Positions 791 through 17,479 of a DNA stretch of 64,000 nt are shown here, one piece after another. The stretch comes from an uncultured Gemmatimonadota bacterium (GTDB lineage: Bacteria > GCA-2686955 > CAYMWF01). The stretch's first letter is position 1; every line of letters begins with the position of its first letter. Under the pieces are notes generated by a model. It was not told the origin of the DNA, made no database searches, and saw only the letters and a program-made list of their open reading frames with translations. The stretch covers positions 48,051 through 112,050 of the forward strand of contig CAYMWF010000002.1 in the NCBI GenBank assembly GCA_964394085.1, read 5' to 3'. The position numbers and the translations under genes are program-made.

Positions 791-2140
791 TCAGCAAGAA
801 TTAAAAACCACCTCTTCCCCGATTGAGAAGATGCGCTCAACGAGCTCCATGCCCTGCATGACAGAATGATCCATGTTCCCTATTTCGTATTTCCAGGACC
901 CGAACCGACCTCTTGAAAACAACTGATTCTTTTCTAATAATTCGTGGATTCTCCCGATGTCACGGTTTCGACCCATGAAAGGGACTGGTAGAGAATATGG
1001 AATATCCGCTACCCAGGTCGACACGATACGCTCTCTGTCATCAGATTCTAGAAATGCCGCATCAATCAAACCTTCAACAGTTTCATCAAGGATACTACCA
1101 ACATTGTAGGATGTCCGTTCGCTGGTTGAAATCTCGCAAAGCAAAGAAAAATAGCGATCACCCGGGGTGTTGTTAGGTGAGTAATTGGATAGGTATGTTA
1201 CCCTGTAGAAAGGGTGTTTATTTTGCGGAAAATATGTCCAGTTCTTATTACTTGGACACGGTCTTTTTATCCCAATCCCTGTCATAATCCCCTGATTGGT
1301 CAGAAAATTTTTTCCGCGTTTAACCAGCGATTCAGGGGGACGGTCGATAATCTTTATCAGTTCCGGTAACGGAATTGTCGAAATTAGAATATCATAATTA
1401 TATTTAGCTCTGTCAGCCAGAACCAGTTCCTTTTTTCTTATATCGATCTTTTCAATGGCTCTCCCATATTCGATATTCGAATCTAAAACTGAAGCCATCT
1501 TAGTGAAAAGACCTCCGGTTCCGCCGTTTAATGGATAGCTGAATTCTCTGTTCGGCCCCCAATTAGAGTCTTCCTTTCTGTAAATAATATTTTCAATTAC
1601 CTTTCGGATATCAACAGTGGTGACGCGTTCCGCAATCCATCCCGCATCCATTCCCTTGAGATCCACCGCCCAGACCTTTTCATTGTATGGAATCATAAAA
1701 TGCTCAGCGATTCCTTTACCAAATACCGTATTCACCCATGTCAAGAAATTAGTACGATCAGGTTCGACATCCTGAATGCCCAAGAGGCCCTCGACGCATT
1801 CCAAGACAACCTGTTCTTGGAGAAAATGAAAGTTGCTTTGAAAAGGATACTTTATGAATCTATCATAGATCCTTACCCAGCTTTCTCTTGCATGCTTGAC
1901 AATCTCGTCTCCCAGAAGCTCGGAAACCAGCGAATTGAATCTATCAATCGATGAAAAGATAATATGACCGCCATAATCCCAAACGAATCCGGATGAATCC
2001 ACGACACTGGCGGAGAGACCTCCCGGCTGGTTTTCTTTCTCAAAGAGCCGCCAGTTTCTGTACCCAAGCTTTTCGAGTCTCCAGGCCGCACCGAGTCCCG
2101 TCGGACCGGCGCCCAGGATGAGGATTTTCTTATCCATCAT
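791..2140 (-). CDS. FAD/NAD(P)-binding oxidoreductase (amine-oxidase / UDP-galactopyranose-mutase-like Rossmann fold)
   Basis: N-terminal dinucleotide-binding motif ILILGAGPTGLGAAWRL...FEKENQPGGL...DYGGHIIFS. It sits inside the glycan cluster and is co-oriented with the flippase (ATGA-type overlap at 2137-2140). Confidence 0.55.
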   Translation of the reverse strand: MMDKKILILGAGPTGLGAAWRLEKLGYRNWRLFEKENQPGGLSASVVDSSGFVWDYGGHIIFSSIDRFNSLVSELLGDEIVKHARESWVRIYDRFIKYPFQSNFHFLQEQVVLECVEGLLGIQDVEPDRTNFLTWVNTVFGKGIAEHFMIPYNEKVWAVDLKGMDAGWIAERVTTVDIRKVIENIIYRKEDSNWGPNREFSYPLNGGTGGLFTKMASVLDSNIEYGRAIEKIDIRKKELVLADRAKYNYDILISTIPLPELIKIIDRPPESLVKRGKNFLTNQGIMTGIGIKRPCPSNKNWTYFPQNKHPFYRVTYLSNYSPNNTPGDRYFSLLCEISTSERTSYNVGSILDETVEGLIDAAFLESDDRERIVSTWVADIPYSLPVPFMGRNRDIGRIHELLEKNQLFSRGRFGSWKYEIGNMDHSVMQGMELVERIFSIGEEVVFNSC

Positions 2141-3702
2141 CTCCCTCCAAATCCAAAAACCCGTTGAAGAACAGTTTTTATCTGTTCCTTCTCGGCTTCA
2201 GTGACTACTCCAAGTACAAACAAGGAAATATAATAGACTAGGATAGATAATATTATTGATACAATCCCCAGTATACCTGCCTCGGTCAGTCTCAAAACAG
2301 ACAGAATATGACTGATCAGATGATAGAATGCCAGCATGATCAGTGCCGACACGATCAGGAATGGGTTCACAGGCGGAAAAAGTCTGCCTTCCCGGTTGAA
2401 TGTTCGTTTCACTAACAGCAATTTCACTAACATGAGAAAAGACACGGAGGCCAGTGTTGCCCAGGCTGCACCGATGAATGAGTACGAGGGGATCAATACT
2501 GAATTTAAAATCGCGTTGAGCGCAATCGCCATGAAGCTTAATATTATCAGTATCGACGCCCCACCAGCCCTCGTCACGTACTTGCTGTTAAATAGAACAG
2601 GGAGAATAACTACATTTAAACTGTTTATGGCATAAGTTCCCGCCTGAATCTTCATCGCAAAAGACGAGGGCGCATATTTCTCCGTAAAGAAAAGTACCAG
2701 GATCTTTTCGGCTCCAAAAAAGACTGCAAAAAAAAGCGGTATTGCATAAAAAGTAATAACCAATCTGAACAGCTGGTGGAAAGTACGTATAACCAAGCCG
2801 AAGTTTTTTTCAAAGTTACGCGATATTACAGGATAAATAACCGTTCTGACGCTTTCGAGCATCATCGCAATCGAATCGAACAGTCTAAAAGGAATTGTGT
2901 AGTATGCCACTGCGCTCATTGAGAGGGGGATTTCAGAAAGTCCGACAAGGTCGAGGTCTAGACGCCTACCCCCCGGGATTAAGGAAAGCATGAACTGGTC
3001 AATACGGGAATTGATGACAATCAGGAAAGCCAGAATTCCAAAAGGCAACGTGCGCTTTATTAGCCCTATTGCAAATTCTTTCTCGACAAAGGGTCGTATC
3101 GGGAAAAAATGGCGTTTAAACAATTGGTAATAAACTGTTATCGCGACAACTGCCGAAACCACCTGGAGGAGAAAAATGAATGGAAGTCCGTTATCTCCTT
3201 CTGCCACCAGAAGCAAAATGGCAAATAAATTGAAAAAGAATGATAAAAAAGTACCAAGGAGAGCAGGCCCCCACATTTTCTCATGTGCGATAAACATGGC
3301 GCTCATCGTGTCAATCAATGGGTTTAAAATGATTGTTGCGGCCACGATGAACAAGAACCTGGTCACATCGGGTTCATAGTTCAGAACATTGCCGACCATA
3401 ATCAGATAAATTATCAAACCAATTAAAGCAAAACTCAACCGGATGGTGAGGATGTTTAAGAATATAAATCTGGCTCTCTCCTTGTTTTTCGAGATTTCCT
3501 TGATGCTCATCGGTTGGAATCCCAAGTTCGCCAGCAATGTAAAGATGAAAGCAACGGTATTCACCGTACCGAACTTTCCAAAGCTCGCTTCGGACAGCTT
3601 CTGAGCAGCTATTAGCAGAAACGCGAAATTCAGCAGTTTAATCAGAATATTCGAAATCAGAATATATAATGTATTTCTGACGATTCGCTGAGCAAGGCTC
3701 AT
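2137..3702 (-). CDS. Wzx-like oligosaccharide flippase (polysaccharide biosynthesis protein, MOP superfamily)
   Basis: The track ORF extends to 4044, but the real start is the ATG at 3700-3702 with a GGAGG RBS. That start overlaps the GT2 stop (ATGA). The protein is polytopic: MSLAQRIVRNTLYILISNILIKLLNFAFLLIAAQKLSEASFGKFG..., typical of Wzx/RfbX. Confidence 0.65.
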   Translation of the reverse strand: MSLAQRIVRNTLYILISNILIKLLNFAFLLIAAQKLSEASFGKFGTVNTVAFIFTLLANLGFQPMSIKEISKNKERARFIFLNILTIRLSFALIGLIIYLIMVGNVLNYEPDVTRFLFIVAATIILNPLIDTMSAMFIAHEKMWGPALLGTFLSFFFNLFAILLLVAEGDNGLPFIFLLQVVSAVVAITVYYQLFKRHFFPIRPFVEKEFAIGLIKRTLPFGILAFLIVINSRIDQFMLSLIPGGRRLDLDLVGLSEIPLSMSAVAYYTIPFRLFDSIAMMLESVRTVIYPVISRNFEKNFGLVIRTFHQLFRLVITFYAIPLFFAVFFGAEKILVLFFTEKYAPSSFAMKIQAGTYAINSLNVVILPVLFNSKYVTRAGGASILIILSFMAIALNAILNSVLIPSYSFIGAAWATLASVSFLMLVKLLLVKRTFNREGRLFPPVNPFLIVSALIMLAFYHLISHILSVLRLTEAGILGIVSIILSILVYYISLFVLGVVTEAEKEQIKTVLQRVFGFGGR

Positions 3703-4649
3703 TCGATTCCGCCTCCGAAAATCATAAGCTGTTCCAACACGTGGAGGGAGCAGGTTCTGTTCCGCTGTATTTCTTTTCGTTTTCGGAGGAGGGCAGGTAG
3801 TTTCTTGAGGGCATCTAATCGTCCCAGAAGGGCGGATAAAGGGTGGTCGGTCAAGAATAATGAAAGGAAAAATGTAGAAACCAGTTCCGGAAGGTGACGT
3901 TTCATTATTCCTCCGGGATAGTCCTTGATAAATGTAAAGATCGCGTTTCTGTTTGTCCTCCTGATGAAGTCTTTGCTCCCTGGTTCTGAAGAGGCTGATC
4001 CGATATGATATGAAACTGCGGGAGGCACATAAGCACCGCGCCAATCAGCAAGCCTCAGTCTGAGGCAAAGGTCCGTGTCTTCCCCATGCGCGAAATACTG
4101 TTCATCATAAGATCCAACTTCATCTAAAGCTGCTTTCCTGAAGAGGGACGCGGCTGTGCAGATTGCCAGAACCTCTCTCGGCTCCTCGTATTGGCCGATA
4201 TCTTCTTCATCTTTTCCGATGTTATATGGTAGAGCGTCTATGCCATAATGATCGCCGACCGCATATATGATTTTGGTATCCTCTGACCAGATTATCTTGC
4301 CTCCAGCAAAACCGAGAGAAGGGTTCGCATCCATAACTTCAACAAGATTACCAAGCCATGACGGATCGGCGATGACGTCATTTGAATAAAAAGCGATGTA
4401 TTCCGAGTCCGCTGCTTTCAGCCCGATATTCGCCGCTGGTGCATAACCCGTGTTTTCAGGCAGAAGTAAAGTATCCACCGAAGGATAATTCTCATTCAAC
4501 CAAACCATGCTGTCATCTTGAGAGCCGTTGTCTACAACGAGTATCCTGAACGATGTATAATCCTGGTTCAGAAGCGATGGGATAGACTTCTCAAGCAAGT
4601 ATCGCCTGTTCCAGTGCGGAATGACAAATGTAACGCGTGGTTTACCCAT
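3699..4649 (-). CDS. Glycosyltransferase family 2
   Basis: VTFVIPHWNRRYLLEKSIPSLLNQDYTSFRILVVDNGSQDDS... is a GT-A fold with a DxD-type GT2 N-terminus. Confidence 0.75.
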   Translation of the reverse strand: MGKPRVTFVIPHWNRRYLLEKSIPSLLNQDYTSFRILVVDNGSQDDSMVWLNENYPSVDTLLLPENTGYAPAANIGLKAADSEYIAFYSNDVIADPSWLGNLVEVMDANPSLGFAGGKIIWSEDTKIIYAVGDHYGIDALPYNIGKDEEDIGQYEEPREVLAICTAASLFRKAALDEVGSYDEQYFAHGEDTDLCLRLRLADWRGAYVPPAVSYHIGSASSEPGSKDFIRRTNRNAIFTFIKDYPGGIMKRHLPELVSTFFLSLFLTDHPLSALLGRLDALKKLPALLRKRKEIQRNRTCSLHVLEQLMIFGGGIE

Positions 4650-4670: not shown

Positions 4671-6281
4671 CTATTCTATGTAACCCAATCCTTTCAACCG
4701 TTTCTTGATTTCCTTATCATCTTCATCGTTTAAAATCATTTCGGAACTACCGGATTCTACACACTTTGCGGTCTCGGTTTTCATATAATCAGGAGGAAAT
4801 TTTTTACGGAACCACGGTTCAATGATCTCCTCCCTTAAAAAGCCATCGAGTTTCGCTGGAATCGGGCGTCTCATCAGATAAAATGCAAGTGGTAAAATGT
4901 CTTCCAGCCCTGCACCGTCAACCTGGTTGTCCTTTGCTATGCCGTCTCCATGCACATAAAGTATTCCGTGATCCCGATGTTGCCCGGATTCTCCTTCCTG
5001 TCTCCCGGAAAACGCCGGATCTGATGTGGACGAGAATAATTGCTGCGCCTGCAGGTTCGGGGAGGGCATAAAACTGTGGTCCTGCATTATCATAACCAGA
5101 TCAGGTGCTGAATCTGTATATGGACCTTCGTATATTTCATCCCTGGTGTATACAATATCGACCAGTTTTTCTCCATTGTCGGGATTCCTTAAGGACTCCA
5201 GATCCGTTTTGATCTGTTCAACCAGACCGTCATAGTCAGCGGGATCCACAATCCCCTCCGGTTCTCTTCCCCGCAGATTGATGTATATCCCTTCCTGGGA
5301 TCCTATCCAATTGGAATACGCCGTTGTTCTCCGCCAATCAATAATCTCTTCGAGTTTTTTACGGGCAAGCCGCAGAGACCTCCCATGACGCGACAGTCCG
5401 TACCTCTGAAACGGTCGTTTGAGTTTTAAATAATTGCACTGTTCAAGCCACTTATTCAAAAAAAAGTTCTTTGTCTTGGGACCAAACCCATGATCTGACA
5501 TAACAATCAAAGATGTGTCTTCAAGCTTCTCGAGGAGACGACCAATTAGCCGGTCAAGCCGGATATAACAGTGCCTTATTGCTTCTCCGTAACTATCTGC
5601 AGAAGCCTGACTATATCCGGGATGGGATCGATCCATTGCGTGCCAGAAAAAATGCTGAATCCTGTCGGATATTGTAAAAACGGCCATGAAACAATCCCAG
5701 GGTTTTGTACTCATGAGGTAGTGCATTATTTCTTCACGTCGGGAAAGGTTTTCATATAATCTTTCCAGGACGGGCACTCCCGGTGGTTGCCCCGTCATTC
5801 CCAGGAGTTCCATTTCGACGGGTGGACGCAATCCGCGGGCGATAAGTTCAACAAGCAGCGACGCAGGCTTTGTAATCCCCGCCTCTATCGACGGTGAAAG
5901 CAGTCCGGTTACTATTATTGCGGGATTGTCTCTTGGCGGAAAACTGACAGGAACATTGAATGAAACTCCGGAACCTCCCTGCTCTGCCAGGTGATCAAAT
6001 AAAGTGGGTGCCCTCAGGACGCTGGAATTGATCAGCGGTCGTTCCCAGCGGCCTTTTAATTGCTGCCAGAACGCGAAGATACCTGTCCTGCCCGGGTTTA
6101 CGCCTGTCAGGGCAACCGGCCAGGCAACGGAACTCTGAGGAGGGATTGATGAGCGGAGCTTTCCCCAGGAACCTTCTTGCGCAAGTTTACGGAAGGACGG
6201 TAATCGACCCTCCTTGACAAGGGGATCGATAATATCAAATGTCGCGCCATCCAAACCAAGGATGAAAAGGCGTTTATTCAT
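4671..6281 (-). CDS. Alkaline-phosphatase-superfamily protein (type I phosphodiesterase/nucleotide pyrophosphatase family), paralog 1
   Basis: N-terminus LFILGLDGATFDIIDPL...SSIPPQSSVAWPVALTGVNPGRTG. No signal peptide. The C-terminus ends ...KGLGYIE, as in paralog 2. Confidence 0.6.
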   Translation of the reverse strand: MNKRLFILGLDGATFDIIDPLVKEGRLPSFRKLAQEGSWGKLRSSIPPQSSVAWPVALTGVNPGRTGIFAFWQQLKGRWERPLINSSVLRAPTLFDHLAEQGGSGVSFNVPVSFPPRDNPAIIVTGLLSPSIEAGITKPASLLVELIARGLRPPVEMELLGMTGQPPGVPVLERLYENLSRREEIMHYLMSTKPWDCFMAVFTISDRIQHFFWHAMDRSHPGYSQASADSYGEAIRHCYIRLDRLIGRLLEKLEDTSLIVMSDHGFGPKTKNFFLNKWLEQCNYLKLKRPFQRYGLSRHGRSLRLARKKLEEIIDWRRTTAYSNWIGSQEGIYINLRGREPEGIVDPADYDGLVEQIKTDLESLRNPDNGEKLVDIVYTRDEIYEGPYTDSAPDLVMIMQDHSFMPSPNLQAQQLFSSTSDPAFSGRQEGESGQHRDHGILYVHGDGIAKDNQVDGAGLEDILPLAFYLMRRPIPAKLDGFLREEIIEPWFRKKFPPDYMKTETAKCVESGSSEMILNDEDDKEIKKRLKGLGYIE

Positions 6282-6297
6282 TGAACCATCTCGATAT

Positions 6298-6975
6298 TTA
6301 TCTATCCCCGATCTCGCTATCTTCTGAAAGAAACTTGACTTTGCTTACCGCTACACCGCTGGAATCGTTGTTGGTCTGTACCGGGTGTTTAGACGAATCT
6401 TGACCCGTATCTCGGATGTCATTGGCCAGGAAAACACCGAAAAGAAGCAGAATAATAACCGGAAGAAGGACCAGGTACATTTCACGCAACGGGGGTCTTG
6501 GGTACAAGGAATCCAGAAAATTTCTGGCAACAAGATTAACGAAAATTGATACCAGGGCACTTACACCACAACAGTTTATTACCAGGATTGTTGAAAGGAT
6601 GAGGCGTGACCATATAGACAGAAGGAAATGCGGAAAAACGACTCTCGAAAAAAACTCCAGAACTATCAACGATGCCGTGGTTGATGTGAAAAGAAAAAAT
6701 ACGGTGGTAATTATACCAGTATCCGTTCTGGGGAATCTATTTGGTTGAACCAACCTGAAAAGGTAAAGAATTCCTGCTGTCAGGATTCCCATGCTTGGTA
6801 TTAACAGAAGAGTCAGCGTTACAAAATCATAATTGAACTGGAAAAAATCTCTAAAACCTAGATAAATGTTGTCATGGACAATAAGATCGAAGGCGGCTAA
6901 AAGAAGGGTCAGAATGATCGATACGGGCAATCCTATTGCTAGTGCACGTTCGAAATCAGACTTATACCTGCTCAT
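6298..6975 (-). CDS. Polytopic membrane protein, unknown function
   Basis: Hydrophobic helices throughout. It lies between the two AlkP-family paralogs on the same strand. Confidence 0.4.
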   Translation of the reverse strand: MSRYKSDFERALAIGLPVSIILTLLLAAFDLIVHDNIYLGFRDFFQFNYDFVTLTLLLIPSMGILTAGILYLFRLVQPNRFPRTDTGIITTVFFLFTSTTASLIVLEFFSRVVFPHFLLSIWSRLILSTILVINCCGVSALVSIFVNLVARNFLDSLYPRPPLREMYLVLLPVIILLLFGVFLANDIRDTGQDSSKHPVQTNNDSSGVAVSKVKFLSEDSEIGDR

Positions 6976-6989
6976 GCATCCTCCACAGG

Positions 6990-8588
6990 TTACTCGATAT
7001 AACCCAGCCCTTTTAACTGTCGATGGATTATCTCCGAGTCTTCGTTACTGTACTCTTCAGTAAAACGCCCATATCCCTTTGCGGTTTCTGTCCGGTCTAC
7101 TCTCGCAGCATTGTAGGAATCAGTAAATGCTTCTTTTATGGGTGTTCCATCCATATCATCAGGTGTAGGAATATCAAAATGTCTGAGAATAGTAGGGGCA
7201 ATATCCATAATACTCGCATCATCGATGCAGACGCCGGTTTTAACAGCTGAAGATGGTCCATGTATTACAAGAACGCCATCCTCCCTGTGGAGAGCAGGGG
7301 TCAAGGTCTCGGGTTTTTCAAGCAGTGGCCCTTTATCTATTTGCCCAAGTGTATGATATGCGTGCCCATCCGTCTTATATTGAATATCGGGTGCACAACC
7401 GATCTGGTCGCCGGAAAATATTTCTTGAGCGGTCCACGCATCGCTGATAACTCTTCGCCCTGAATCCGGATCTGTGATCTGCAGCAATCTATCAATAACT
7501 TCCCGCTTAAGAGATTCCTCTTGCTCTCCAGGCTCAACTATACCCTTCGGCTCACGTCCCCTTAGATTAAGCATAATTATTTCCTCTCCCCCCGCCCATG
7601 CCGGATAAGCCACCGAAGCAGACCAATCAATCGATTCCCAGGGTTCCGGTTGTCGCAATCCGATGAATCGCTTCCGGCGTCGTAGTTCAATTCTATTCAG
7701 AATCGGTTGAATTCGGAAGGAAGGTGCAATCCGCAAATATCCCTTCCGGATTAACCAGCGCCCCACGAAAAAGTTCTTTTTTATCGGACCGAACCCGTGA
7801 TCGGAGATAACTATCGTCACGGTTTCCTCTGGAAGGCCTTCCAATAACCGTCCAAGGATTCTGTCGGTTGCTGTGTAGGCTTCTTCGATGAGTCCCTCGA
7901 ACATCGCAGTTTCACGCGGGTGGTTTGAACGATACTCTTCATCTCGGAACCGCCAGGCCACATGCTGCACCCTGTCCGTAATTGTAAATACTGCAGCGAA
8001 GACATCCCATTCCCTTGATAGCATCAGGTATTCTACTGCTCTTGCCCGCTGACTCTGCTCTGCAAAGAGCTGCTCCAGAAGACGAAGACGATCCGGCGAG
8101 GAAGCACCGCCAGGTTCAGAATGATCCAGAGGGTATGTACCAAGATTGGAGAGTAGCTCCATATGGAGGGATGAAGGCCAGGTAAACAGGTGTTCTTTTG
8201 ACGGGGTCAGCATCCCGGCGACCAGGATTCCGTTGACTTTTTCCGGTGGGTAAGTCATCGGCATATTAACGACTCCGACACGCCGAGCGTGACGAGAAAG
8301 AATCGACCAGATTGTCTCTGATTTAATGGCGGTAGCATTGACGTATCTTCTGCGATACGACTCAGGTAATTGCTGAAGAAAATAATAGACTCCGTGTTTT
8401 CCGGGGTTTTTCCCCGTCATTAACGAAGCCCATGCTACTGAAGAATTCGGCGGGATAGTTGACACCAGGTTAGCGCGAACGCCGTTCTGCAAAAGCCGTT
8501 TAATAGTCGGTAATTTATCCTGATCAATGAGCGGATCAATAATATCGAAAGTAGCCCCGTCTATACCGAATAGAAAAATCCGTTCCAT
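6990..8588 (-). CDS. Alkaline-phosphatase-superfamily protein (type I phosphodiesterase family), paralog 2
   Basis: MERIFLFGIDGATFDIIDPL...STIPPNSSVAWASLMTGKNPGKHG. Same architecture and same C-terminal ...KGLGYIE as 4671-6281. Confidence 0.6.
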   Translation of the reverse strand: MERIFLFGIDGATFDIIDPLIDQDKLPTIKRLLQNGVRANLVSTIPPNSSVAWASLMTGKNPGKHGVYYFLQQLPESYRRRYVNATAIKSETIWSILSRHARRVGVVNMPMTYPPEKVNGILVAGMLTPSKEHLFTWPSSLHMELLSNLGTYPLDHSEPGGASSPDRLRLLEQLFAEQSQRARAVEYLMLSREWDVFAAVFTITDRVQHVAWRFRDEEYRSNHPRETAMFEGLIEEAYTATDRILGRLLEGLPEETVTIVISDHGFGPIKKNFFVGRWLIRKGYLRIAPSFRIQPILNRIELRRRKRFIGLRQPEPWESIDWSASVAYPAWAGGEEIIMLNLRGREPKGIVEPGEQEESLKREVIDRLLQITDPDSGRRVISDAWTAQEIFSGDQIGCAPDIQYKTDGHAYHTLGQIDKGPLLEKPETLTPALHREDGVLVIHGPSSAVKTGVCIDDASIMDIAPTILRHFDIPTPDDMDGTPIKEAFTDSYNAARVDRTETAKGYGRFTEEYSNEDSEIIHRQLKGLGYIE

Positions 8589-8771
8589 CTAATCGCATTT
8601 CCGGGTAGTTACCCGATTTTCACAGTTTCTGAATCATTTTCGGCATTGTCGGATTCAGGTCGCTCCTCCGGGCAGGGAGAATATATTATCCTGTATCTTT
8701 GGATGCCGTCATTTTTTTCGGGTTCCCTGCAGATAGCGAGGATGGACTTTGGGCTTTACGAGTGTTTGGGA

Positions 8772-9656
8772 TCAAGCATCCCTGCTTAGAAGATACTTGG
8801 CCAGCAGTCGGAGTTTTTCCGCCCTGCTTCCAAACCGTTCAAGGTGATCGATCGATTCTTTATAAAGTCTTGAAGCAGTTTCCCTCGCCGAGGAAATATC
8901 AACAAAATTCACAAGTGACACCCGGTTACGATCCTTGTTCCCCTCTTTCCCAGTCCTGCTTGCTACACCTTCTACATCCAGGATATCATCAATAATCTGG
9001 TAAGCCAGTCCGAGTTTTTCTGTAAACCCGGTAACAGCCTCGATAGCTCCCCTGTCACCATCACCAACCATGACCCCAAGTTGAGCTGATGCTGAGAATA
9101 AACGACCGGTCTTCCTGTCATGGATCGACTGCAGCATATCAAATGTTAAATCAGCGGCGGAGGTTTGCAGGTCATCAATCTGTCCTCCAACAAGACCTTT
9201 CGATCCTACCGTACGGGAGATCAAACTCACCATTCTGGCTACAGTTGTTTCCGGAAGATCCTTGTTCAGCGCATACTCACCAATGATTTCATAAGCGCGA
9301 ACCAGCAAAGCAATACTGGACAAAACGGCAATATCTTCGCTGAAGGCCAGATGTGTGGTCTCTACACCCCTCCTTAAACCCGAGTTATCCATGGCCGGCA
9401 GATCGTCCAGGATGAGAGAACTGGAATGAATCAGCTCAACAGCTGCACCGACATCAATCACCTCCGAAATTTTCACGTCAAATATTTCCGCACAGAGAAT
9501 TGTCACTGCAGGTCTGATTCTCTTGCCGCCACTAAGGACCGCATACCTCATCGCTTCGTGAATGGGCTCGGGATGAACATTAGCAGGAACTAGCACGACT
9601 TCCAGATGTCGATTAATTGCCTTTTGAAGAGAGGGCAGGAAGGTAGGAGGTTTCAT
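8772..9656 (-). CDS. Polyprenyl diphosphate synthase (GGPP/FPP synthase family)
   Basis: First Asp-rich motif LILDDLPAMDNSGLRRG and second motif YQIIDDILD. Confidence 0.8.
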   Translation of the reverse strand: MKPPTFLPSLQKAINRHLEVVLVPANVHPEPIHEAMRYAVLSGGKRIRPAVTILCAEIFDVKISEVIDVGAAVELIHSSSLILDDLPAMDNSGLRRGVETTHLAFSEDIAVLSSIALLVRAYEIIGEYALNKDLPETTVARMVSLISRTVGSKGLVGGQIDDLQTSAADLTFDMLQSIHDRKTGRLFSASAQLGVMVGDGDRGAIEAVTGFTEKLGLAYQIIDDILDVEGVASRTGKEGNKDRNRVSLVNFVDISSARETASRLYKESIDHLERFGSRAEKLRLLAKYLLSRDA

Positions 9657-10004
9657 AAAGTAACAAATTCCTATCTGGTTGCTTGATAACGTTTCAAGAT
9701 GGTAATCGGTTAATCAGCCGGGTTTTCCAGAAGAACCTATTTCAGGCTGCTGTCTAATATATTTGTTTTACCTTTTATGAAGGTTACGGAGCATCAGCGT
9801 TGAGATTTCTGTGAACCCCGAATACTGGGTTTCATTAAAGACTCAATCTAATATGGTTACCCGGCTTTGTCAAGATGGCGCATCAGCTAACAACGGTCGT
9901 GCGTTTTCGGTGTCTTTTGGGTTTCCTTCTTCAGGAGATTCAATCCCGAGGGCAGATCGTGAAATTTAGAGGTTCTTCGGATCTGGAACCAGTAAGCTCC
10001 GTCA

Positions 10005-10913
10005 TTACTGAATAATATAGGCCAGGGCAAATAACACCTGTGCAATAATCAACATAAAATACATGCTCCACCAAGAGGGATGATTTCCATCTCCAGCTAA
10101 TCCGGAAGGGTTCTTAAGAAGAATTAAAGCTGTTATACATCCCCAGAAACTGAGAAAAAACCCCGAAAATGTGAGGATTAGCTTATTCCCTGTGAGAAGT
10201 GGCTCAGCAGGCAGTAGGACAATAATAGGCACCAGGACAAACGGGAAAACTAAAAAGGGGGTGATAACCAGGACGCTGCGCCTGATGCCAAGTACTGCAG
10301 GTATGGTCCTGCAGCCAAATCGACGATCTCCCTCGATATCTGCGATATCTTTTGTAGAAGCAGCACCCAGGACAAAAAGACCGAGCACAATCCCCAACAG
10401 CCATGGTTCCGGATCCATAAATGGGAGAACACCTTGCCATCCGTCAGCGAGTTCGAACCTTGCTGATGCCCAGCCTGCAACCAGAAGCAGGCATCCACGT
10501 GGTAAGGCTATTGCAAAATTTGAAACTATAAAGAGTCTTTTCAGCCTTAACGGCGGCATTGAATATGCAGCGGTGATCAACGCGGTGACAATTACAATTG
10601 CGAAGAAGTAAACATTCACTACCGCTGCCAACAGGATGCTGGCAAGATACAAAATAACCGAAAATACTATAGCTTTGGAAATAGAAATCTTTCCGGCAGG
10701 AATCGGTCGATCAGGTTTATTGATCAGGTCGATTTGCCTATCGAATACTTGGTTGATTACATTTGATGCCGCATTAAGAAGTGATGCAGCCAAAGTGCCG
10801 AGGAAAGAAACCGCTGGAGGAATTCCGCCAGCACCGATAGCCGCTCCTGCCAGGAAACCGACAAGCGGTGCTATAAGTGTAAAGGGTCTTGTGAGTTGAA
10901 TGTACTCCTTCAC
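10005..10913 (-). CDS. UbiA-family aromatic/polyprenyl prenyltransferase, DGGGPS/ChlG-like subfamily
   Basis: NQVFDRQIDLINKPDRPIPAGKIS (NxxxDxxxD...INxPxRPIPxG) and a second Asp motif KDIADIEGDRRFG. Nine-TM style hydrophobicity. It overlaps the upstream membrane-protein gene by 4 nt. Confidence 0.7.
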   Translation of the reverse strand: MKEYIQLTRPFTLIAPLVGFLAGAAIGAGGIPPAVSFLGTLAASLLNAASNVINQVFDRQIDLINKPDRPIPAGKISISKAIVFSVILYLASILLAAVVNVYFFAIVIVTALITAAYSMPPLRLKRLFIVSNFAIALPRGCLLLVAGWASARFELADGWQGVLPFMDPEPWLLGIVLGLFVLGAASTKDIADIEGDRRFGCRTIPAVLGIRRSVLVITPFLVFPFVLVPIIVLLPAEPLLTGNKLILTFSGFFLSFWGCITALILLKNPSGLAGDGNHPSWWSMYFMLIIAQVLFALAYIIQ

Positions 10914-12370
10914 GGAAATGCCATCCTGATCACGATTCCAAGGATTATGATTCCTAGTGTTTCGACAAGTGTTTCCCTGGTTGCCGGAAGAGGTGCGATG
11001 ATATTAAAGTATCTCATTGCAAGCCTTAGGAACAAAATCGAAGATGGAATCAATATGAATTCACTGAATCCGGAGATTAAGCCGAGGATGGCAGCAACGG
11101 TTGTAATCACGAGAGCCCCGGCTAATGAACCCCCTTGTTCCTCCAATACGATTATACCTTGGTCGGATCCGACAGCCTGGGAGTCGACAATCTTCAAATC
11201 AGATAACGAGAAATTTGAATGACCTAGGAATCCGGCGACAAGATCTCCCGATATCCTGCTGGCACCAACGGCAATGGCAAGTACCGATGCAAACTGAAAT
11301 AGGACACGCCCGGCGGGAAGGGTGGTGTTTTGATTGTCAATTCCTGCGGCAAGAGCAAGAAAGGCGCAAATTACAGCGACTACACTGGATGTCCGCAGAT
11401 TGTTCTCCATTTTTTTGCTATCATAAAACCTGTATCTACCTGGAACATTTTCCTTTATATCTTCGTCATTCTCCGAACGAGATATAGCAGCCTTCGGATC
11501 CAGTCGGTATTTCTCCTGTCTCTTAATCGAGAAAATCGATACTATACTGAAAGATAGAAACAGGACGAACAACCTCCAAGACCCGAAATATCCAGCACAT
11601 CCCGAACAGACCACCCAAAACGATATACTTTTCCCGGCCAACCGCCACTTGTGACCAAGTGGCCACCATAGAGCAGTCGAAAACATGAACCATCCGATCC
11701 AGGTCTTCCCTTTTTCGTAAAGGTTTTCAGCAAGAACTGAATATTCCATAAGATAGAGAGCATAGAGGAAAAGTCCTATCAATAGAGGGCGGATATAATC
11801 TTCTTCGATCCTGACATTTTCGCGACAACTCGCATAAGTATATGCAATAGCTGCAGGTACGACAACCAAGAGATGCTCAGCCGAAGGGATGCTTCCCCTT
11901 GAAATCCAATAAGCGGCAATAACCGATGAGGTTGCACCGAGGGTAAAATGGAACCCCATCATAAGGCGGCTGAAGTTTGCTTCATCCAATTGGAGTGTGT
12001 TTGTTTTTTCCGCAAGCAGGCGAACCAACAATGCTCCACCATCCGCAACTGCAAGCATACACCAGACGGCACCTGCCACATGCAGCATCCCCCCAAGTTT
12101 TCCGAATAACGCGATACTGAACAGAACCGTCATCGGATAAGAAACCAGACTACGGAATCTTGGACCATCAGAAGAAACTCCGGGTATGGCGGGAACTACA
12201 ATTAGTACAAATAAAGTAAGTGATGTCGCAATGACAATAGCCATGTATAAACTGGTCCAGCGAAGAAACAAAACAGGCAGAACTGTAGCAATACGAATCA
12301 ATGCGAGATAGATGTCGCCGTCCATTTTGAGACTGTCTGCTGGTCTTATAGTTTCCGGGCTTCTCTTCAT
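10910..12370 (-). CDS. Large polytopic membrane protein (two membrane domains separated by a charged linker), unknown function
   Basis: 486 aa. Translationally coupled to the UbiA-family gene (4-nt overlap). The start codon is uncertain. Confidence 0.4.
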   Translation of the reverse strand: MKRSPETIRPADSLKMDGDIYLALIRIATVLPVLFLRWTSLYMAIVIATSLTLFVLIVVPAIPGVSSDGPRFRSLVSYPMTVLFSIALFGKLGGMLHVAGAVWCMLAVADGGALLVRLLAEKTNTLQLDEANFSRLMMGFHFTLGATSSVIAAYWISRGSIPSAEHLLVVVPAAIAYTYASCRENVRIEEDYIRPLLIGLFLYALYLMEYSVLAENLYEKGKTWIGWFMFSTALWWPLGHKWRLAGKSISFWVVCSGCAGYFGSWRLFVLFLSFSIVSIFSIKRQEKYRLDPKAAISRSENDEDIKENVPGRYRFYDSKKMENNLRTSSVVAVICAFLALAAGIDNQNTTLPAGRVLFQFASVLAIAVGASRISGDLVAGFLGHSNFSLSDLKIVDSQAVGSDQGIIVLEEQGGSLAGALVITTVAAILGLISGFSEFILIPSSILFLRLAMRYFNIIAPLPATRETLVETLGIIILGIVIRMAFP

Positions 12371-12492: not shown

Positions 12493-13161
12493 TTAAATGC
12501 CGGGATCATAGAAGAGCGAGCAGGACAAGATACTTGTCAGGAACCCCGTCCTATCCATTAATCTTGCGTAAACGGGGTAATAACCGGTCGTGGAACAAGG
12601 AAGCGCATAATCCACCGAATCATGAAACGGAATCCAGTCGGTTGAATCCACAAGCGATTCAATCGATGTCAATCTTATAAATTCCATTTCTTCAGGACCA
12701 TCCAAAGCAAACTCGACCTGAGGTGTTGAAACAATCGTATCACCATCGGCAGGATACAGCACATAACGGCCAGGTATCATTTTCTGCCCCTGTATGGGAG
12801 TCGTGGTCGAGCTTTCAATACCCGCTTCGCTTACAGAAGAAACGGCAGTATAACAAACGATCCCGGGCGAGAGGTTATTGAAGGTGAAGCTGTCAGCGCT
12901 TGTTGTGTCGGAATAAATCTGTGTTCGCTCATGATCCGCAAGAGCAACCAGGTAATGGCTGACAGGAGAAGCGGGAGGGCTCCAGGTGAGTTCCGCATTT
13001 TTTTCGCCCACAACAACAGTGAGGTCGACCGGAGGTTCTGGCGCATCGAACCTGTTCAACGGATCCGGCTCGGTGAAGCAACCGTAGAAAATCCCGCCGA
13101 ATACTGCGGAAAGAACGAAACCCGATATCACCTTGCTGAAGTTCACGTATCTATGCTTCAT
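12493..13161 (-). CDS. Secreted/lipoprotein with fibronectin-III-like domain
   Basis: N-terminal hydrophobic segment then ...FYGC. PPVDLTVVVGEKNAELTWSPP... is FN3-like. 4-nt overlap with the upstream gene. Confidence 0.4.
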   Translation of the reverse strand: MKHRYVNFSKVISGFVLSAVFGGIFYGCFTEPDPLNRFDAPEPPVDLTVVVGEKNAELTWSPPASPVSHYLVALADHERTQIYSDTTSADSFTFNNLSPGIVCYTAVSSVSEAGIESSTTTPIQGQKMIPGRYVLYPADGDTIVSTPQVEFALDGPEEMEFIRLTSIESLVDSTDWIPFHDSVDYALPCSTTGYYPVYARLMDRTGFLTSILSCSLFYDPGI

Positions 13162-13862
13162 TTCATGCTCACTTTGTAGCTGAGAATTAAACCATCACAG
13201 GTACTGACGGGCGCCAGGGATAGTTCTTCCTCCCCGGGGAAAAGAGCTGTTTCATATGCAGGGAATTGAATCAATGCATCCAGCACATTAAAGACCCAGC
13301 ACACCCCAAGAGTCCAACCCGTGGCAACATAGATATCATACGCGTTATTCGCTCGATTCCACGCATCCTCCGTGTCATCAACAGCATCTTCGAGATCCTC
13401 CCGGGCGGAAAGATATTGCCATGCTGACAATCCGTGACCGGCAGCCGCAGCAACATTTGTCCAGAATACAAAGGTACCCCAAGTTGGCTGGTCGTTATAC
13501 TTCTGTCCCCATCCCGGAATGATAAGCGAACGGGCGGCAGCTCCTATTCGGTGCTTCGGCCGAGGATCCAGTGTAATCGATTCCGCGCCGTTACTTTGCA
13601 GATAGATACTTTTGCGAGCTGACGTATATCCCGATTGGAGAACTTTTATTTTATATTTCCCGACAGGAAGGCCGTTGCCGGTGAATGGCGTTATTCCCGA
13701 GACACGTACCGGGCCTTCAAGCAGAACTTTGAATCCGGGATGATCGGTTTGCACCTGAATACTTCCCGATCGGTTCTCATTGCAATTTGTCGCCGAGACT
13801 TCTGCATGAGCGGCGACAGCAACAAGCCAAGCCGAAAGAACCATGCTGATTACAAATTTCAT
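13158..13862 (-). CDS. Secreted protein with PEGA-like beta domain
   Basis: Start moved to the ATG at 13860-13862 with an AAAGGAG RBS, giving signal peptide MKFVISMVLSAWLVAVAAHA. GITPFTGNGLPVGKYKIKVLQSGYTS is PEGA-like. Confidence 0.45.
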   Translation of the reverse strand: MKFVISMVLSAWLVAVAAHAEVSATNCNENRSGSIQVQTDHPGFKVLLEGPVRVSGITPFTGNGLPVGKYKIKVLQSGYTSARKSIYLQSNGAESITLDPRPKHRIGAAARSLIIPGWGQKYNDQPTWGTFVFWTNVAAAAGHGLSAWQYLSAREDLEDAVDDTEDAWNRANNAYDIYVATGWTLGVCWVFNVLDALIQFPAYETALFPGEEELSLAPVSTCDGLILSYKVSMK

Positions 13863-14069
13863 ACAGGCTCCTTTATGCCCCGTTCCCGATGTGCTTCGAG
13901 CTGGAAAAGCATTCGACATCAATGTATAGCTTACTGTAAAGACTGATACTATCCCCCGTCCCTTTTGCTATTAACCGCCGCGATAAACCTCGCATCCGAA
14001 TTCATCTTAAAGTTTAGTTCAGTATCGATATTTGTCAAGTTGCATTTAAATCAGCGTCAACCAACCTAT

Positions 14070-14663
14070 TTACCCTATTCCCCGGGTATCCCCGCTACTC
14101 CCTGAAAGCCAATTGATCATTTTATACCGTTCTTTGAATAAGATAACCGCCGCCGCGGTCGTTTGCGGGAAAACTACTGATAGAGGGATATCATAGTTCC
14201 ACAATGCAGTCCAGCACATCCCGGCAATTGCAAATACCACCGCCGCGAGTATACGCAGCACGACATGATCGACTTTTATCTTGAAACCGATCGCATAGAC
14301 AATAATACCTGAGGCTACCCCAACGGGCGCGAACGGAAGAAAAGCTCCTGCCCCAAAGGCAAGTCTGGTCCGAGGATTTCCAGAAAAGGATCCAATCGTA
14401 GTTATTAAACATCCTATCCAGGATCCCAATACTGGTAACTCCCAGGTTATCACCAACCAGCGATAGAGTAATTGCGAAACGAAAGCTCCTGCAATAAGAC
14501 AGAATATGGATCGAGCCAGCGCATGTCGCAAAATCAGACGCTTTTGCAGGTTTTCGGAAACCTTATTTGAAAAATCTGCTCCTGATACTCTGCGCAAGCC
14601 GATTTTCAGTACATTCTGCCGAATCACTTCTGACAAATTCGACCCTCCAATTATTGTCTTCAC
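14070..14663 (-). CDS. Membrane protein, unknown function
   Basis: Hydrophobic helices. Its start overlaps the der stop by 4 nt. Confidence 0.4.
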   Translation of the reverse strand: MKTIIGGSNLSEVIRQNVLKIGLRRVSGADFSNKVSENLQKRLILRHALARSIFCLIAGAFVSQLLYRWLVITWELPVLGSWIGCLITTIGSFSGNPRTRLAFGAGAFLPFAPVGVASGIIVYAIGFKIKVDHVVLRILAAVVFAIAGMCWTALWNYDIPLSVVFPQTTAAAVILFKERYKMINWLSGSSGDTRGIG

Positions 14664-15977: not shown

Positions 15978-17387
15978 TTATTCTCCTTCGATGAAATGAT
16001 CGAATCCACCATCCAGAAGTAAAGAACTTAAAATGCGGGCTAATTCCGCCGGATGCTGCGGAGCGATGACACAAGGCGTTCCCGTTGCATTTATTATATC
16101 AATGAGGGTCAGGCCGTCCAATGTTTCACCATCGTCATTCAGTAAATCCGGCGGTAGAACCGCAAAGCGGGACCTTATCGTCTCATCGCTTTTCCCGCCA
16201 CTCTCCGGCCTTGAATCCTCTTCAATGCTTTTATTAATTTCTCGGATTACGTCGCCCCCTCCAAGGAGAGATGCGACACTGATCGATGAACCTAGAAATT
16301 CATTCTCTGCGGCAATTGTTTCTACTTTCATCCTGTTGCTAAGGCGAGAAATGCTTTCCCCGAAGGCAGCAATAAAGGGAGCGGCTAGTTTGCCCGTCAG
16401 AAGGAACAAGAGAACTGAAGGATTCTTGCTTGTTTCACGACCGTATCCTAATTCACGTGAAGATCCGATCGCTTCACTCATTATAGCTTCAGCTTCCAGG
16501 AATATGCGTTCCCACCATCTGATCAGGCCAAGCCCGTTACCAAGCTGAGGATAATCACCATAATAGCTCTCTCGAGGTAACTCCCTCTCTGCGTGAATGT
16601 AAAATTCATCAGACGCCGCAACTCTTCGCTCCAAGGAAGGATTATTTCTATTGTGAGCGTCTATAACATCCAAAACTTCCCCGGAGATTTTCTTATCAAC
16701 AGGTTCAATGTGAAACAGCTTCTTCCTGAATTTGGTCAAACCTACCGGTACGACGCCGACGCTGGCTATCGAATTTCCCAGGCCTGCGAGCTCGTGAAGA
16801 GTTTTGTTTAATGCGGATCCGTCATTCAGACCCGGACAGATAACAGTCTGCAGGTGCAATGTTATGCCGTTAGAAGCGAATCGAGTGAGCAGCGGAAGTA
16901 TTGGGGCTGGGCTTTTTTTCCCGAACAACCTTCCCCGTACTGCCGGATCTGTTGAATGAACGGAGATATAGAGAGGCGATAACCTGAGCTGCAGGATCCG
17001 CTCAATGTCGATTTCGGAGAGATTTTCACCGGTAATGAAACACCCATCGAGAAATGAAAGTCGAAAATCATCATCCTTGATATAGAGATCTTTCCTCAGA
17101 CCTTTCGGCAACTGGCTTACGAAACAAAAAATACAATTCGAAGTGCACCTTCTGATTTCCATGGGTACAAAATCGATTCCCAGTGAGTCCCGGCTGGCTG
17201 TTTGTGCGAATACTTCCTTCAACTCACCAGAAGTGAATTCCAGGTAATTATCGCCTTGCTCGACATGGAACAGGAAATCAAGATGATCCGTAACCCGTTC
17301 ACCGTTTAATCTTATCAGCCTGTCTCCGCGTTTAATATCAGCTTTATAAGCCGGAGAATTCTTGATTACGTGAGAAATTTTCAACAT
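15978..17387 (-). CDS. PDZ-domain radical-SAM-like protein (DUF512 family)
   Basis: CTSNCIFCFVS is CxxxCxxC. A PDZ-like segment lies at the N-terminus. The track ORF N-terminus overlaps tRNA-Gly, so the start is set at the ATG at 17385-17387. Confidence 0.55.
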   Translation of the reverse strand: MLKISHVIKNSPAYKADIKRGDRLIRLNGERVTDHLDFLFHVEQGDNYLEFTSGELKEVFAQTASRDSLGIDFVPMEIRRCTSNCIFCFVSQLPKGLRKDLYIKDDDFRLSFLDGCFITGENLSEIDIERILQLRLSPLYISVHSTDPAVRGRLFGKKSPAPILPLLTRFASNGITLHLQTVICPGLNDGSALNKTLHELAGLGNSIASVGVVPVGLTKFRKKLFHIEPVDKKISGEVLDVIDAHNRNNPSLERRVAASDEFYIHAERELPRESYYGDYPQLGNGLGLIRWWERIFLEAEAIMSEAIGSSRELGYGRETSKNPSVLLFLLTGKLAAPFIAAFGESISRLSNRMKVETIAAENEFLGSSISVASLLGGGDVIREINKSIEEDSRPESGGKSDETIRSRFAVLPPDLLNDDGETLDGLTLIDIINATGTPCVIAPQHPAELARILSSLLLDGGFDHFIEGE

Positions 17388-17402
17388 GGTGGGTATATTC
17401 TC

Positions 17403-17479
17403 TGGAGCGGGCAACGGGACTCGAACCCGCGACAACTAGCTTGGGAAGCTAGAACTCTACCAACTGAGTTATGCCCGCC
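17403..17479 (-). tRNA. tRNA-Gly (anticodon CCC), CCA encoded
   Basis: Minus-strand read: GCGGGCA acceptor, D-arm ACTCAGTTGGTAGAGT, anticodon stem-loop CTAGC-TTCCCAA-GCTAG, T-arm GCGGGTTCGAGTCCCGT, 3' TGCCCGC-T-CCA. The acceptor stem is a perfect 7 bp. Confidence 0.85.

Follow-up and report, generated by a model that had tools for sequence, protein, structure and literature searches.

In plants and cyanobacteria, phytol is salvaged by the phytol kinase VTE5 and by VTE6 (COG1836/DUF92), which serve UbiA-family consumers such as ChlG, HPT/VTE2 and MenA. COG1836 has been linked to VTE6, an enzyme first predicted from the genome context of this family (PMC9782597). Here we analyze a locus with related components in an uncultured, apparently nonphotosynthetic Gemmatimonadota bacterium. 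The stretch examined (the window) comprises 64,000 nt, positions 48,051 to 112,050 of contig CAYMWF010000002.1 in assembly GCA_964394085.1, and searches for neighboring genes covered these 64 kb. Three open reading frames (ORFs) on the minus strand encode a 486-aa polytopic membrane protein with two domains (12370..10910; the partner), a 302-aa prenyltransferase of the UbiA family (10913..10005) and a 294-aa polyprenyl synthase (9656..8772) predicted to make geranylgeranyl diphosphate (GGPP). The prenyltransferase belongs to the branch of digeranylgeranylglyceryl phosphate synthase (DGGGPS) and chlorophyll synthase (ChlG). The partner is a degenerate relative of proteins in which a prenol-kinase-like domain (putative CTP_transf_1/CarS fold) is fused to a VTE6-like DUF92 domain.

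The canonical relatives of the partner follow the same component logic as phytol salvage, except that their kinase-like domains are fused and lie adjacent to a UbiA enzyme of the ChlG/DGGGPS branch. The window departs further, since its fusion has lost conserved residues and its prenyl donor probably comes from the adjacent synthase rather than from salvage. We estimate a probability of about one in two that the genes form an operon devoted to a membrane lipid with an isoprenoid anchor, in which the UbiA transferase works with a noncatalytic partner descended from a kinase. In the literature searched, we found no description of the fusion paired with a DGGGPS-branch UbiA enzyme in nonphotosynthetic bacteria. 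The logic of the pairing is already known from phytol salvage, and the ebo operon (PMC5133447) provides an earlier example of UbiA genes clustered with genes for PF01663 enzymes.

The prenyltransferase and the adjacent synthase

The positions of the three genes and the 4-nt overlap given in the initial annotation agree with the ORF coordinates, and the overlap can be read directly: the stop of the partner gene and the start of the UbiA gene share GTGA (...TTT CCG TGA over GTG AAG GAG). Start/stop overlaps are also present in relatives, as TAATG in locus L001 and as 4 nt in locus L094. The same gene order occurs in two further lineages, represented by L001/L002 and L094, which argues against a chance arrangement. 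In the TARA-derived L094, the order is Der, PEGA, fn3, partner, UbiA, synthase, phosphodiesterase, membrane protein, phosphodiesterase, family-2 glycosyltransferase (GT2) and Wzx. Because the housekeeping genes on the L094 flanks are syntenic with the window as well, this synteny indicates conservation within a lineage and is no proof of functional linkage. A run of N at ~6700-6900 interrupts the L094 UbiA gene, hence no UbiA call was made there; both halves of the ORF are present.

The UbiA protein passes the Pfam model PF01040 (139.9 bits versus a cutoff of 34.2, E = 1.1e-40) and carries the motif string attributed to it earlier, NQVFDRQIDLINKPDRPIPAGKIS, at residues 54-77. Its Asp-rich motifs N54-D58-D62 (NxxxDxxxD) and D189-D192-D196 (DxxDxxxD) are intact and are invariant in 24 clade members. 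Together with Y117, these residues are invariant counterparts of key residues in the archaeal DGGGPS of M. jannaschii (MjDGGGPS; PDB 6M31), namely, N62/D66/D70, the tyrosine of the Tyr-Lys motif (motif 2) and the third Asp-rich motif (PMC9385802). In a search of PDB sequences with a profile built from the 24 clade members, MjDGGGPS was the closest solved relative (E = 2.2e-34), followed by chlorophyll a synthase (3.7e-28), AfUbiA (7e-16), ApUbiA (2e-11) and UBIAD1 (2e-9), with decaprenylphosphoryl-phosphoribose (DPPR) synthase the most distant UbiA relative found (9e-5).

The NCBIfam ranking pointed to the same branch. PRK12884 scored highest (128.6 bits), ahead of ChlG (117), DGGGPS and BchG (105.5 each) and homogentisate phytyltransferase (96), and the MenA, UbiA, CtaB and DPPR synthase models reached ~34-50 bits. 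The protein fell below every curated subfamily cutoff in NCBIfam, including those of the DGGGPS equivalogs NF009521, NF009522 and NF009512 (105.5 versus 296, 89.2 versus 353 and 42.6 versus 278 bits, respectively), the ChlG/BchG models TIGR01476, TIGR02056 and PRK07566 (105.5 versus 212, 69.6 versus 436 and 117 versus 313 bits) and the DPPR synthase model NF008977 (36.1 versus 234 bits). By sequence, the enzyme belongs to the DGGGPS/ChlG branch, as the initial annotation had proposed, yet to no curated DGGGPS or ChlG equivalog. None of the ORFs in the window was seen to be a photosynthesis gene, again in line with that annotation.

Homologs with 40-58% identity are common in metagenome-assembled genomes, and the clade spans Omnitrophota, Eisenbacteria, Acidobacteriota (Vicinamibacterales and Thermoanaerobaculia), Latescibacterota, Planctomycetota (including Ca. 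Uabimicrobium amorphum) and others, in addition to the window lineage. The nearest homolog among GTDB representatives is 52% identical to the window enzyme.

The 294-aa protein encoded downstream of the UbiA gene, previously described as GGPP-synthase-like, matches PF00348 (163.9 bits, E = 5e-48) and has DDLPAMD as its first Asp-rich motif and DDILD as its second. Small residues ahead of the first Asp-rich motif lead to C20 rather than C15 products. The window protein has Ser-Ser at positions -5/-4 relative to this motif, where farnesyl diphosphate (FPP) synthases have an aromatic residue, and it is therefore predicted to be a GGPP-type synthase with a C20 product, consistent with the earlier description. 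It scored below the cutoffs of both the FPPsyn (246 versus 275 bits) and the CrtE (216 versus 460 bits) NCBIfam models.

A spacer of 348 bp (9657-10004) separates the UbiA and synthase genes. It contains a sigma-70-like element on the minus strand (TTGACA-17-TAGATT, 9845..9873), which is a match to the consensus only, in a region where promoter-like matches are no more numerous than in shuffled sequences. It falls within a block (GCGCCATCTTGACAAA...CCATATTAGATT) conserved in L002, a relative at 57%/77% identity; for this reason, the synthase and the genes downstream may have a promoter of their own.

The membrane partner and its kinase-like relatives

The partner had no match among Pfam or NCBIfam models, even at an E value of 0.1, and neither it nor its relative P0128 was recognized by the DUF92 models (PF01940 and TIGR00297) at E ≤ 0.1. 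A word-indexed search of 5.8 billion clusters with the 486-aa sequence found only the query itself and P0002 (57% identical), and the same type of search with a seven-sequence alignment found four proteins only. Five proteins in all were recovered by an exhaustive HMMER search of 1.84 billion representatives: P0001 (the window protein in a 471-aa form), P0128 (E = 5e-62, 33% identity) and three two-domain proteins (1e-7 to 3e-4) whose C-terminal halves are PF01940 DUF92 domains. The profile match to P0131 covers both domains. In locus L004, a 444-aa protein with DUF92 at residues 217-431 is encoded directly upstream of a 52%-identical UbiA ortholog, and its N-terminal half aligns to the window partner in BLASTP. 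Finally, hhalign matched the window clade (three sequences) to 27 canonical fusions with a probability of 99.7% (E = 1.1e-26) over 368 columns. Since this alignment runs across both domains, the homology of the partner to the two-domain fusion family is secure at the level of sequence profiles, with the partner as a very divergent member. In an internal-duplication test, an hhalign match between the N-terminal domain and the DUF92 domain was confined to residues common to two overlapping segments.

The two-domain build suggested in the initial annotation is reproduced in AlphaFold models, which were built from shallow alignments of only eight rows; they contain helical bundles at residues ~10-287 and 318-484, which are joined by a linker modeled at low confidence (290-315). 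Among natural folds, CarS matched the modeled partner best, and Foldseek against the PDB gave nothing significant. The models thus suggest that the N-terminal domain of the family has a fold related to those of CarS (5GUF) and CdsA (4Q2E), members of the CTP_transf_1 superfamily, and that the family may carry a CTP-type intramembrane lipid-phosphotransferase fold. The check for CarS proposed in the initial annotation was borne out only in part: CarS came first in the fold comparison, but neither PF01864 nor PDB sequence searches gave a match. PDB sequence searches with profiles of the fusion family and of its N-terminal domain likewise returned nothing useful. A GT-C membrane glycosyltransferase, as had been proposed for the partner, a CDP-alcohol phosphatidyltransferase (PF01066) and a transporter were each considered and dropped, as no family match was obtained and the relatives are DUF92 fusions instead.

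The fold match to CarS bears on the first of two functions put forward in the initial annotation, an archaeal-type ether-lipid step. According to this explanation, the UbiA protein would be a true DGGGP synthase, as in Cloacimonadota, with geranylgeranylglyceryl phosphate synthase (GGGPS) encoded elsewhere and the CarS-fold partner replacing CDP-archaeol synthase. MjDGGGPS is the best solved relative of the enzyme, aligned over motifs 1-3 (PMC9385802). Bacteria of the Fibrobacteres-Chlorobi-Bacteroidetes (FCB) group carry DGGGPS homologs, and a GGGPS-DGGGPS pair from Cloacimonetes makes archaeol in Escherichia coli (PMC7852524, PMC6431249); the DUF5683 and PEGA neighbors of the partner hint at an FCB affinity. 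However, when all ORFs of at least 170 aa in the 64 kb were scanned with Pfam or read by eye, neither GGGPS nor glycerol-1-phosphate dehydrogenase (G1PDH) was found, and a PlsC-type acyltransferase is present. The two synthases of Cloacimonetes, the single proven example in bacteria, are encoded next to each other (PMC7852524), which is the case neither here nor among the annotated neighbor families that recur around the clade. In addition, the UbiA protein scores far below the DGGGPS equivalog cutoffs, the partner is related to DUF92 fusions and not to CarS, and the conserved companions (a kinase-like fusion and PF01663 enzymes) differ from those of DGGGPS systems. We therefore regard archaeal-type ether phospholipids as a very unlikely product of the locus.

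In the canonical fusions, the C-terminal domain is PF01940 DUF92/TIGR00297, with PF01940 scores of 86-189 bits. We take PF01940 to correspond to COG1836, the family of the plant phytyl-phosphate kinase VTE6. The sole Pfam signal in the N-terminal domain is PF01148 (CTP_transf_1), detected in 2 of 23 members with a best E value of 0.0012. Its motifs, GDGxAxxxG...PWNxxKS and E...DDN..VP, presumably resemble the signature of VTE5 and dolichol kinases, which offers a lead to its function.

The window protein has lost most of what the canonical fusions conserve. We scored degeneracy at columns with a conservation of 85% or more among 29 canonical fusions, with family positions given in window numbering. 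At most of these columns, the window protein, P0002 and P0128 depart from the consensus. The motifs tested were GDGxAxxxG, PWNxxK and E...DDN..P in the N-terminal domain and K, RR, N, DTxxSExG, GTxGA, E, E, N and N in DUF92. In the window protein, the invariant G-D pair keeps D110 but has A in place of G109, and R stands in place of the invariant G117, so that GDGxAxxxG reads ADGGALLVR. The PWNxxKSWxG stretch, in which W128 and K133 are invariant and P127, N129 and G137 are nearly so, reads LQLDEANFSRLMM. E181 is replaced by S, and D190 and N191 of the DDN motif are replaced by E and D, respectively. Also replaced in the DUF92 domain are K289, R319, R320 and N328; D372, T373, S376, E377 and G379; and G398, T399, G411, E451, E459, N466 and N470. 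Among the family-invariant polar residues, only D110 is kept in the window protein, P0002 and P0128, along with a few hydrophobic or Gly/Pro positions. Identical substitutions are visible in the hhalign alignment, and they are therefore no artifact of one alignment.

Despite these losses, the gene has been retained. The partner ORF is intact in three lineages (relatives 57% and 33% identical), and its start/stop overlap with the UbiA gene is kept. At UbiA identities of 44-54%, canonical partners are 26-49% identical to one another (mean, 35%), whereas window-clade partners are 14.5-19.8% identical to canonical ones (mean, 17%); window-clade partners thus appear to diverge about twice as fast as expected. 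Four former DUF92 positions have acquired conserved replacements of the clade's own (R372, E/D411, E466 and E470). As judged from these sequences, the partner is most likely a noncatalytic or repurposed subunit.

Alternatively, the partner could still be an enzyme with a remodeled site, that is, a prenol or prenyl-phosphate kinase or a cytidylyltransferase, which would supply the donor or activate the UbiA product. Consistent with this, one acidic residue survives in each N-terminal motif, as D110 (D/E) and E189 (D to E), the four clade-specific charged residues stand where DUF92 motifs used to be, the models suggest that the fold is retained, and the intact orthologs are evidence of purifying selection. 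Still, the invariant residues K133, E181, R69, G117, D372/T373, E377 and G379 are all replaced, several of them by variable residues (F, R or Q at K133), the protein has diverged at an accelerated pace and matches no Pfam or NCBIfam model, and the adjacent GGPP-type synthase may make salvage dispensable. A remodeled enzyme is, in our judgment, unlikely.

Conserved neighborhoods and the wider operon

We next counted partner genes around the UbiA clade. Sixty-eight nonredundant UbiA loci had enough upstream sequence, and a partner was defined as a gene on the same strand ending no more than 200 bp upstream of the UbiA gene. Twenty-nine of these loci, from several phyla, had a partner directly upstream, 24 of them as a fusion and 5 as DUF92 only; in a rough UbiA tree, these loci are spread over several distinct branches. 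In Omnitrophota and Planctomycetota loci, a polyprenyl synthase gene occupies the directly upstream position instead.

Other gene families recur near the clade across phyla: GGPP synthases, PF01663 enzymes, GT2s, short-chain dehydrogenase/reductase (SDR) epimerases and a variant radical SAM enzyme. PF01663 phosphodiesterases are encoded within ~5 kb of the UbiA gene in L089, L031, L027, L019/L043 and L061; sulfatase-family (PF00884) proteins are also found nearby in L019 and L061. The variant radical SAM protein (~400 aa; NF045502, 220-244 bits; MSMEG_0568-like) accompanies the clade in three unrelated loci, at 8899-10119 in L008, 4150-5355 (minus strand) in L019 and 6490-7692 in L061. The L061 set of phosphodiesterase, radical SAM protein, fusion, UbiA and GGPP synthase is nearly that of the window, with a canonical fusion. 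In L004, the closest canonical locus (4797-9625), genes for an inositol-monophosphatase-family protein and an SDR epimerase precede the fusion and UbiA pair. A 229-aa membrane protein without a family follows this pair, and its counterpart in L006 has a weak MatE match. L008 also contains two B12-binding radical SAM genes, a second UbiA gene, a PP-loop-like protein, a GT-C enzyme (PMT_2) and many GT2/GT4 genes.

In the window, the minus-strand genes continue downstream of the synthase with two paralogous type I phosphodiesterases of the alkaline phosphatase superfamily. The first (532 aa, 6990..8588; PF01663, E = 2.6e-37) has no apparent signal peptide, is conserved in L002 and L094 and had no solved relative at E < 0.01 among PDB sequences. 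The second (536 aa, 4671..6281; PF01663, E = 1.6e-36) is 35% identical to it. Between them lies the gene for a 225-aa polytopic membrane protein (6298..6975) with no significant Pfam or NCBIfam family, which is 40% identical to a 245-aa protein encoded in the corresponding place in L094. A 316-aa GT2 (3699..4649; PF00535, E = 1e-23) and a Wzx/MOP-type polysaccharide flippase-like protein (2137..4044; PF01943, E = 1.6e-23 from residue 121) follow, each at the same position as in L094; the flippase-like protein scored 38.8 bits against a cutoff of 800 with the Wzx_EPS NCBIfam model. As called mechanically, the Wzx-like ORF overlaps the GT2 gene by ~345 nt. Because of this overlap, and because the Pfam domain begins at residue 121, translation probably starts at an internal codon close to 3700. 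The last gene encodes a 449-aa FAD/NAD-binding oxidoreductase with an amine oxidase fold (791..2140; PF13450 and PF01593; PRK07208.1-4, 161 bits, below cutoff), whose membership in the pathway is uncertain.

The ebo operon similarly combines a UbiA protein (EboC) with a cytosolic PF01663 protein of the alkaline phosphatase family (EboF) (PMC5133447; bioRxiv 10.64898/2026.05.21.724671). It has recently been tied to thallusin, and EboC C-prenylates an aromatic acceptor with FPP. The window operon is not an ebo cluster, as the UbiA protein scored 62 bits against a cutoff of 250 with the EboC model and no EboA, B, D or E was found among the operon genes.

The glycosyltransferase genes relate to the second function put forward in the initial annotation, a DPPR-synthase-like pathway feeding a GT-C-like partner. 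The UbiA enzyme would join a phospho-sugar to a polyprenyl phosphate, producing a donor for envelope glycosylation by the GT2, Wzx and, in Omnitrophota, GT-C proteins. Mycobacterial DPPR synthase (Rv3806c, PDB 8J8J), which uses polyprenyl phosphate and phosphoribosyl diphosphate, is likewise a UbiA enzyme in the context of cell envelope glycoconjugates. The GT2 and Wzx genes come next in the window operon, PMT_2 and many glycosyltransferase genes surround the L008 ortholog, inositol-monophosphatase-like and epimerase genes stand beside the L004 pair, and a prenol kinase domain would yield polyprenyl phosphate. Yet DPPR synthase is the weakest match of the UbiA clade (9e-5, as opposed to 2e-34 for DGGGPS), its model NF008977 gave 36 bits against 234, and UbiA enzymes reportedly cluster according to the type of acceptor (PMC9385802). 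Moreover, a diphosphate donor is suggested by the VTE6-type second kinase together with the GGPP-type synthase, a C20 chain would be short for carrying glycans, and the partner is not a GT-C protein. A DPPR-like route thus seems to us highly improbable.

Between der and the partner gene lie three genes (12493-13922 and 14070-14663), which encode proteins with an fn3 domain (222 aa) and with PEGA/DUF5683 (254 aa) and a membrane protein of 197 aa that matches no family. Synteny with L001/L002 and L094 extends to the fn3 and PEGA genes. The DUF5683 match, which is below the Pfam cutoff, hints at an FCB-group organism.

Elsewhere in the window, the segment 34504-43791 encodes a GT2 and a TPR protein, two unusually long flagellins (572 and 574 aa) and a 784-aa FliD-like cap protein, and it may be a flagellin glycosylation island. 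It lies in a region of ~30-44 kb with a GC content of mostly 0.50-0.54, compared to 0.43-0.48 in the remaining window. The sole Rfam match in the window is a tRNA gene (17406-17478, minus strand, 67.9 bits). Since it overlaps the mechanical TTG start of a DUF512-type radical SAM ORF (15978..17435), the true start of that ORF is further downstream.

A proposed envelope lipid pathway

Taken as an isoprenoid-lipid operon with a noncatalytic partner, the locus probably builds an uncharacterized geranylgeranyl-based envelope lipid. The 294-aa synthase would make GGPP as the C20 donor. With all the Mg/diphosphate-binding Asp motifs of DGGGPS in place, the UbiA enzyme would then O-prenylate a polar, probably phosphorylated acceptor; we propose O-prenylation because UbiA enzymes reportedly group by acceptor type and the nearest relatives form C-O bonds. 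The phosphodiesterases, predicted to be cytoplasmic, may process a phosphate or phosphodiester head group, after which the GT2 and the Wzx-like flippase would glycosylate and flip the product. Given these two genes in the operon, a glycolipid or glycoconjugate is a plausible outcome.

Where the fusion is canonical, its two kinase domains would convert free prenols back to the prenyl diphosphate that the transferase uses, much as VTE5 and VTE6 serve ChlG, HPT and MenA in plants. The window lineage has a de novo synthase next to the pair, and this enzyme may have rendered salvage dispensable. Because the family-invariant polar residues are lost, the partner most likely no longer phosphorylates, and it probably persists as a noncatalytic lipid-binding or stabilizing subunit made together with the transferase.

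Several points weigh against this proposal. The canonical N-terminal domain is only tentatively a kinase rather than a cytidylyltransferase, as its assignment draws on weak Pfam matches, a fold match and a presumed motif resemblance. The loss of residues need not end all catalysis, as R372, E/D411, E466 and E470 could form a new site. The degenerate clade is defined by only three sequences, and a second, canonical kinase copy may be encoded elsewhere in the genome. Lastly, the GT2, Wzx and flavoprotein genes, whose synteny is within one lineage only, could be a separate polysaccharide cluster.

In a bolder version, the UbiA clade and its fused kinase partner would represent a way of making isoprenoid ether or ester membrane lipids that is widespread among bacteria and bypasses the archaeal GGGPS step, and the window fusion would be an obligate pseudoenzyme subunit of the transferase. 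Such a route could O-geranylgeranylate a lyso-lipid, a polyol phosphate or a sugar phosphate. We consider this version quite unlikely.

Bacterial DGGGPS-like genes, most of which have no assigned function, stand at the center of discussions about the "lipid divide." For the UbiA clade described here, the recurrent partner, with its fused prenol-kinase-like and DUF92 domains, points to a supply of prenyl diphosphate by salvage. The gene for the bacterial and archaeal geranylgeraniol and geranylgeranyl-phosphate kinase activities is named in neither of two reviews (PMC9782597, PMC9385802), and the canonical fusions are candidate genes for these kinases in bacteria and archaea. The window lineage offers a natural experiment, in which the residues have been lost and the gene has been kept, still overlapping its neighbor from start to stop. 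This combination suggests that the partner and the transferase act as a complex.

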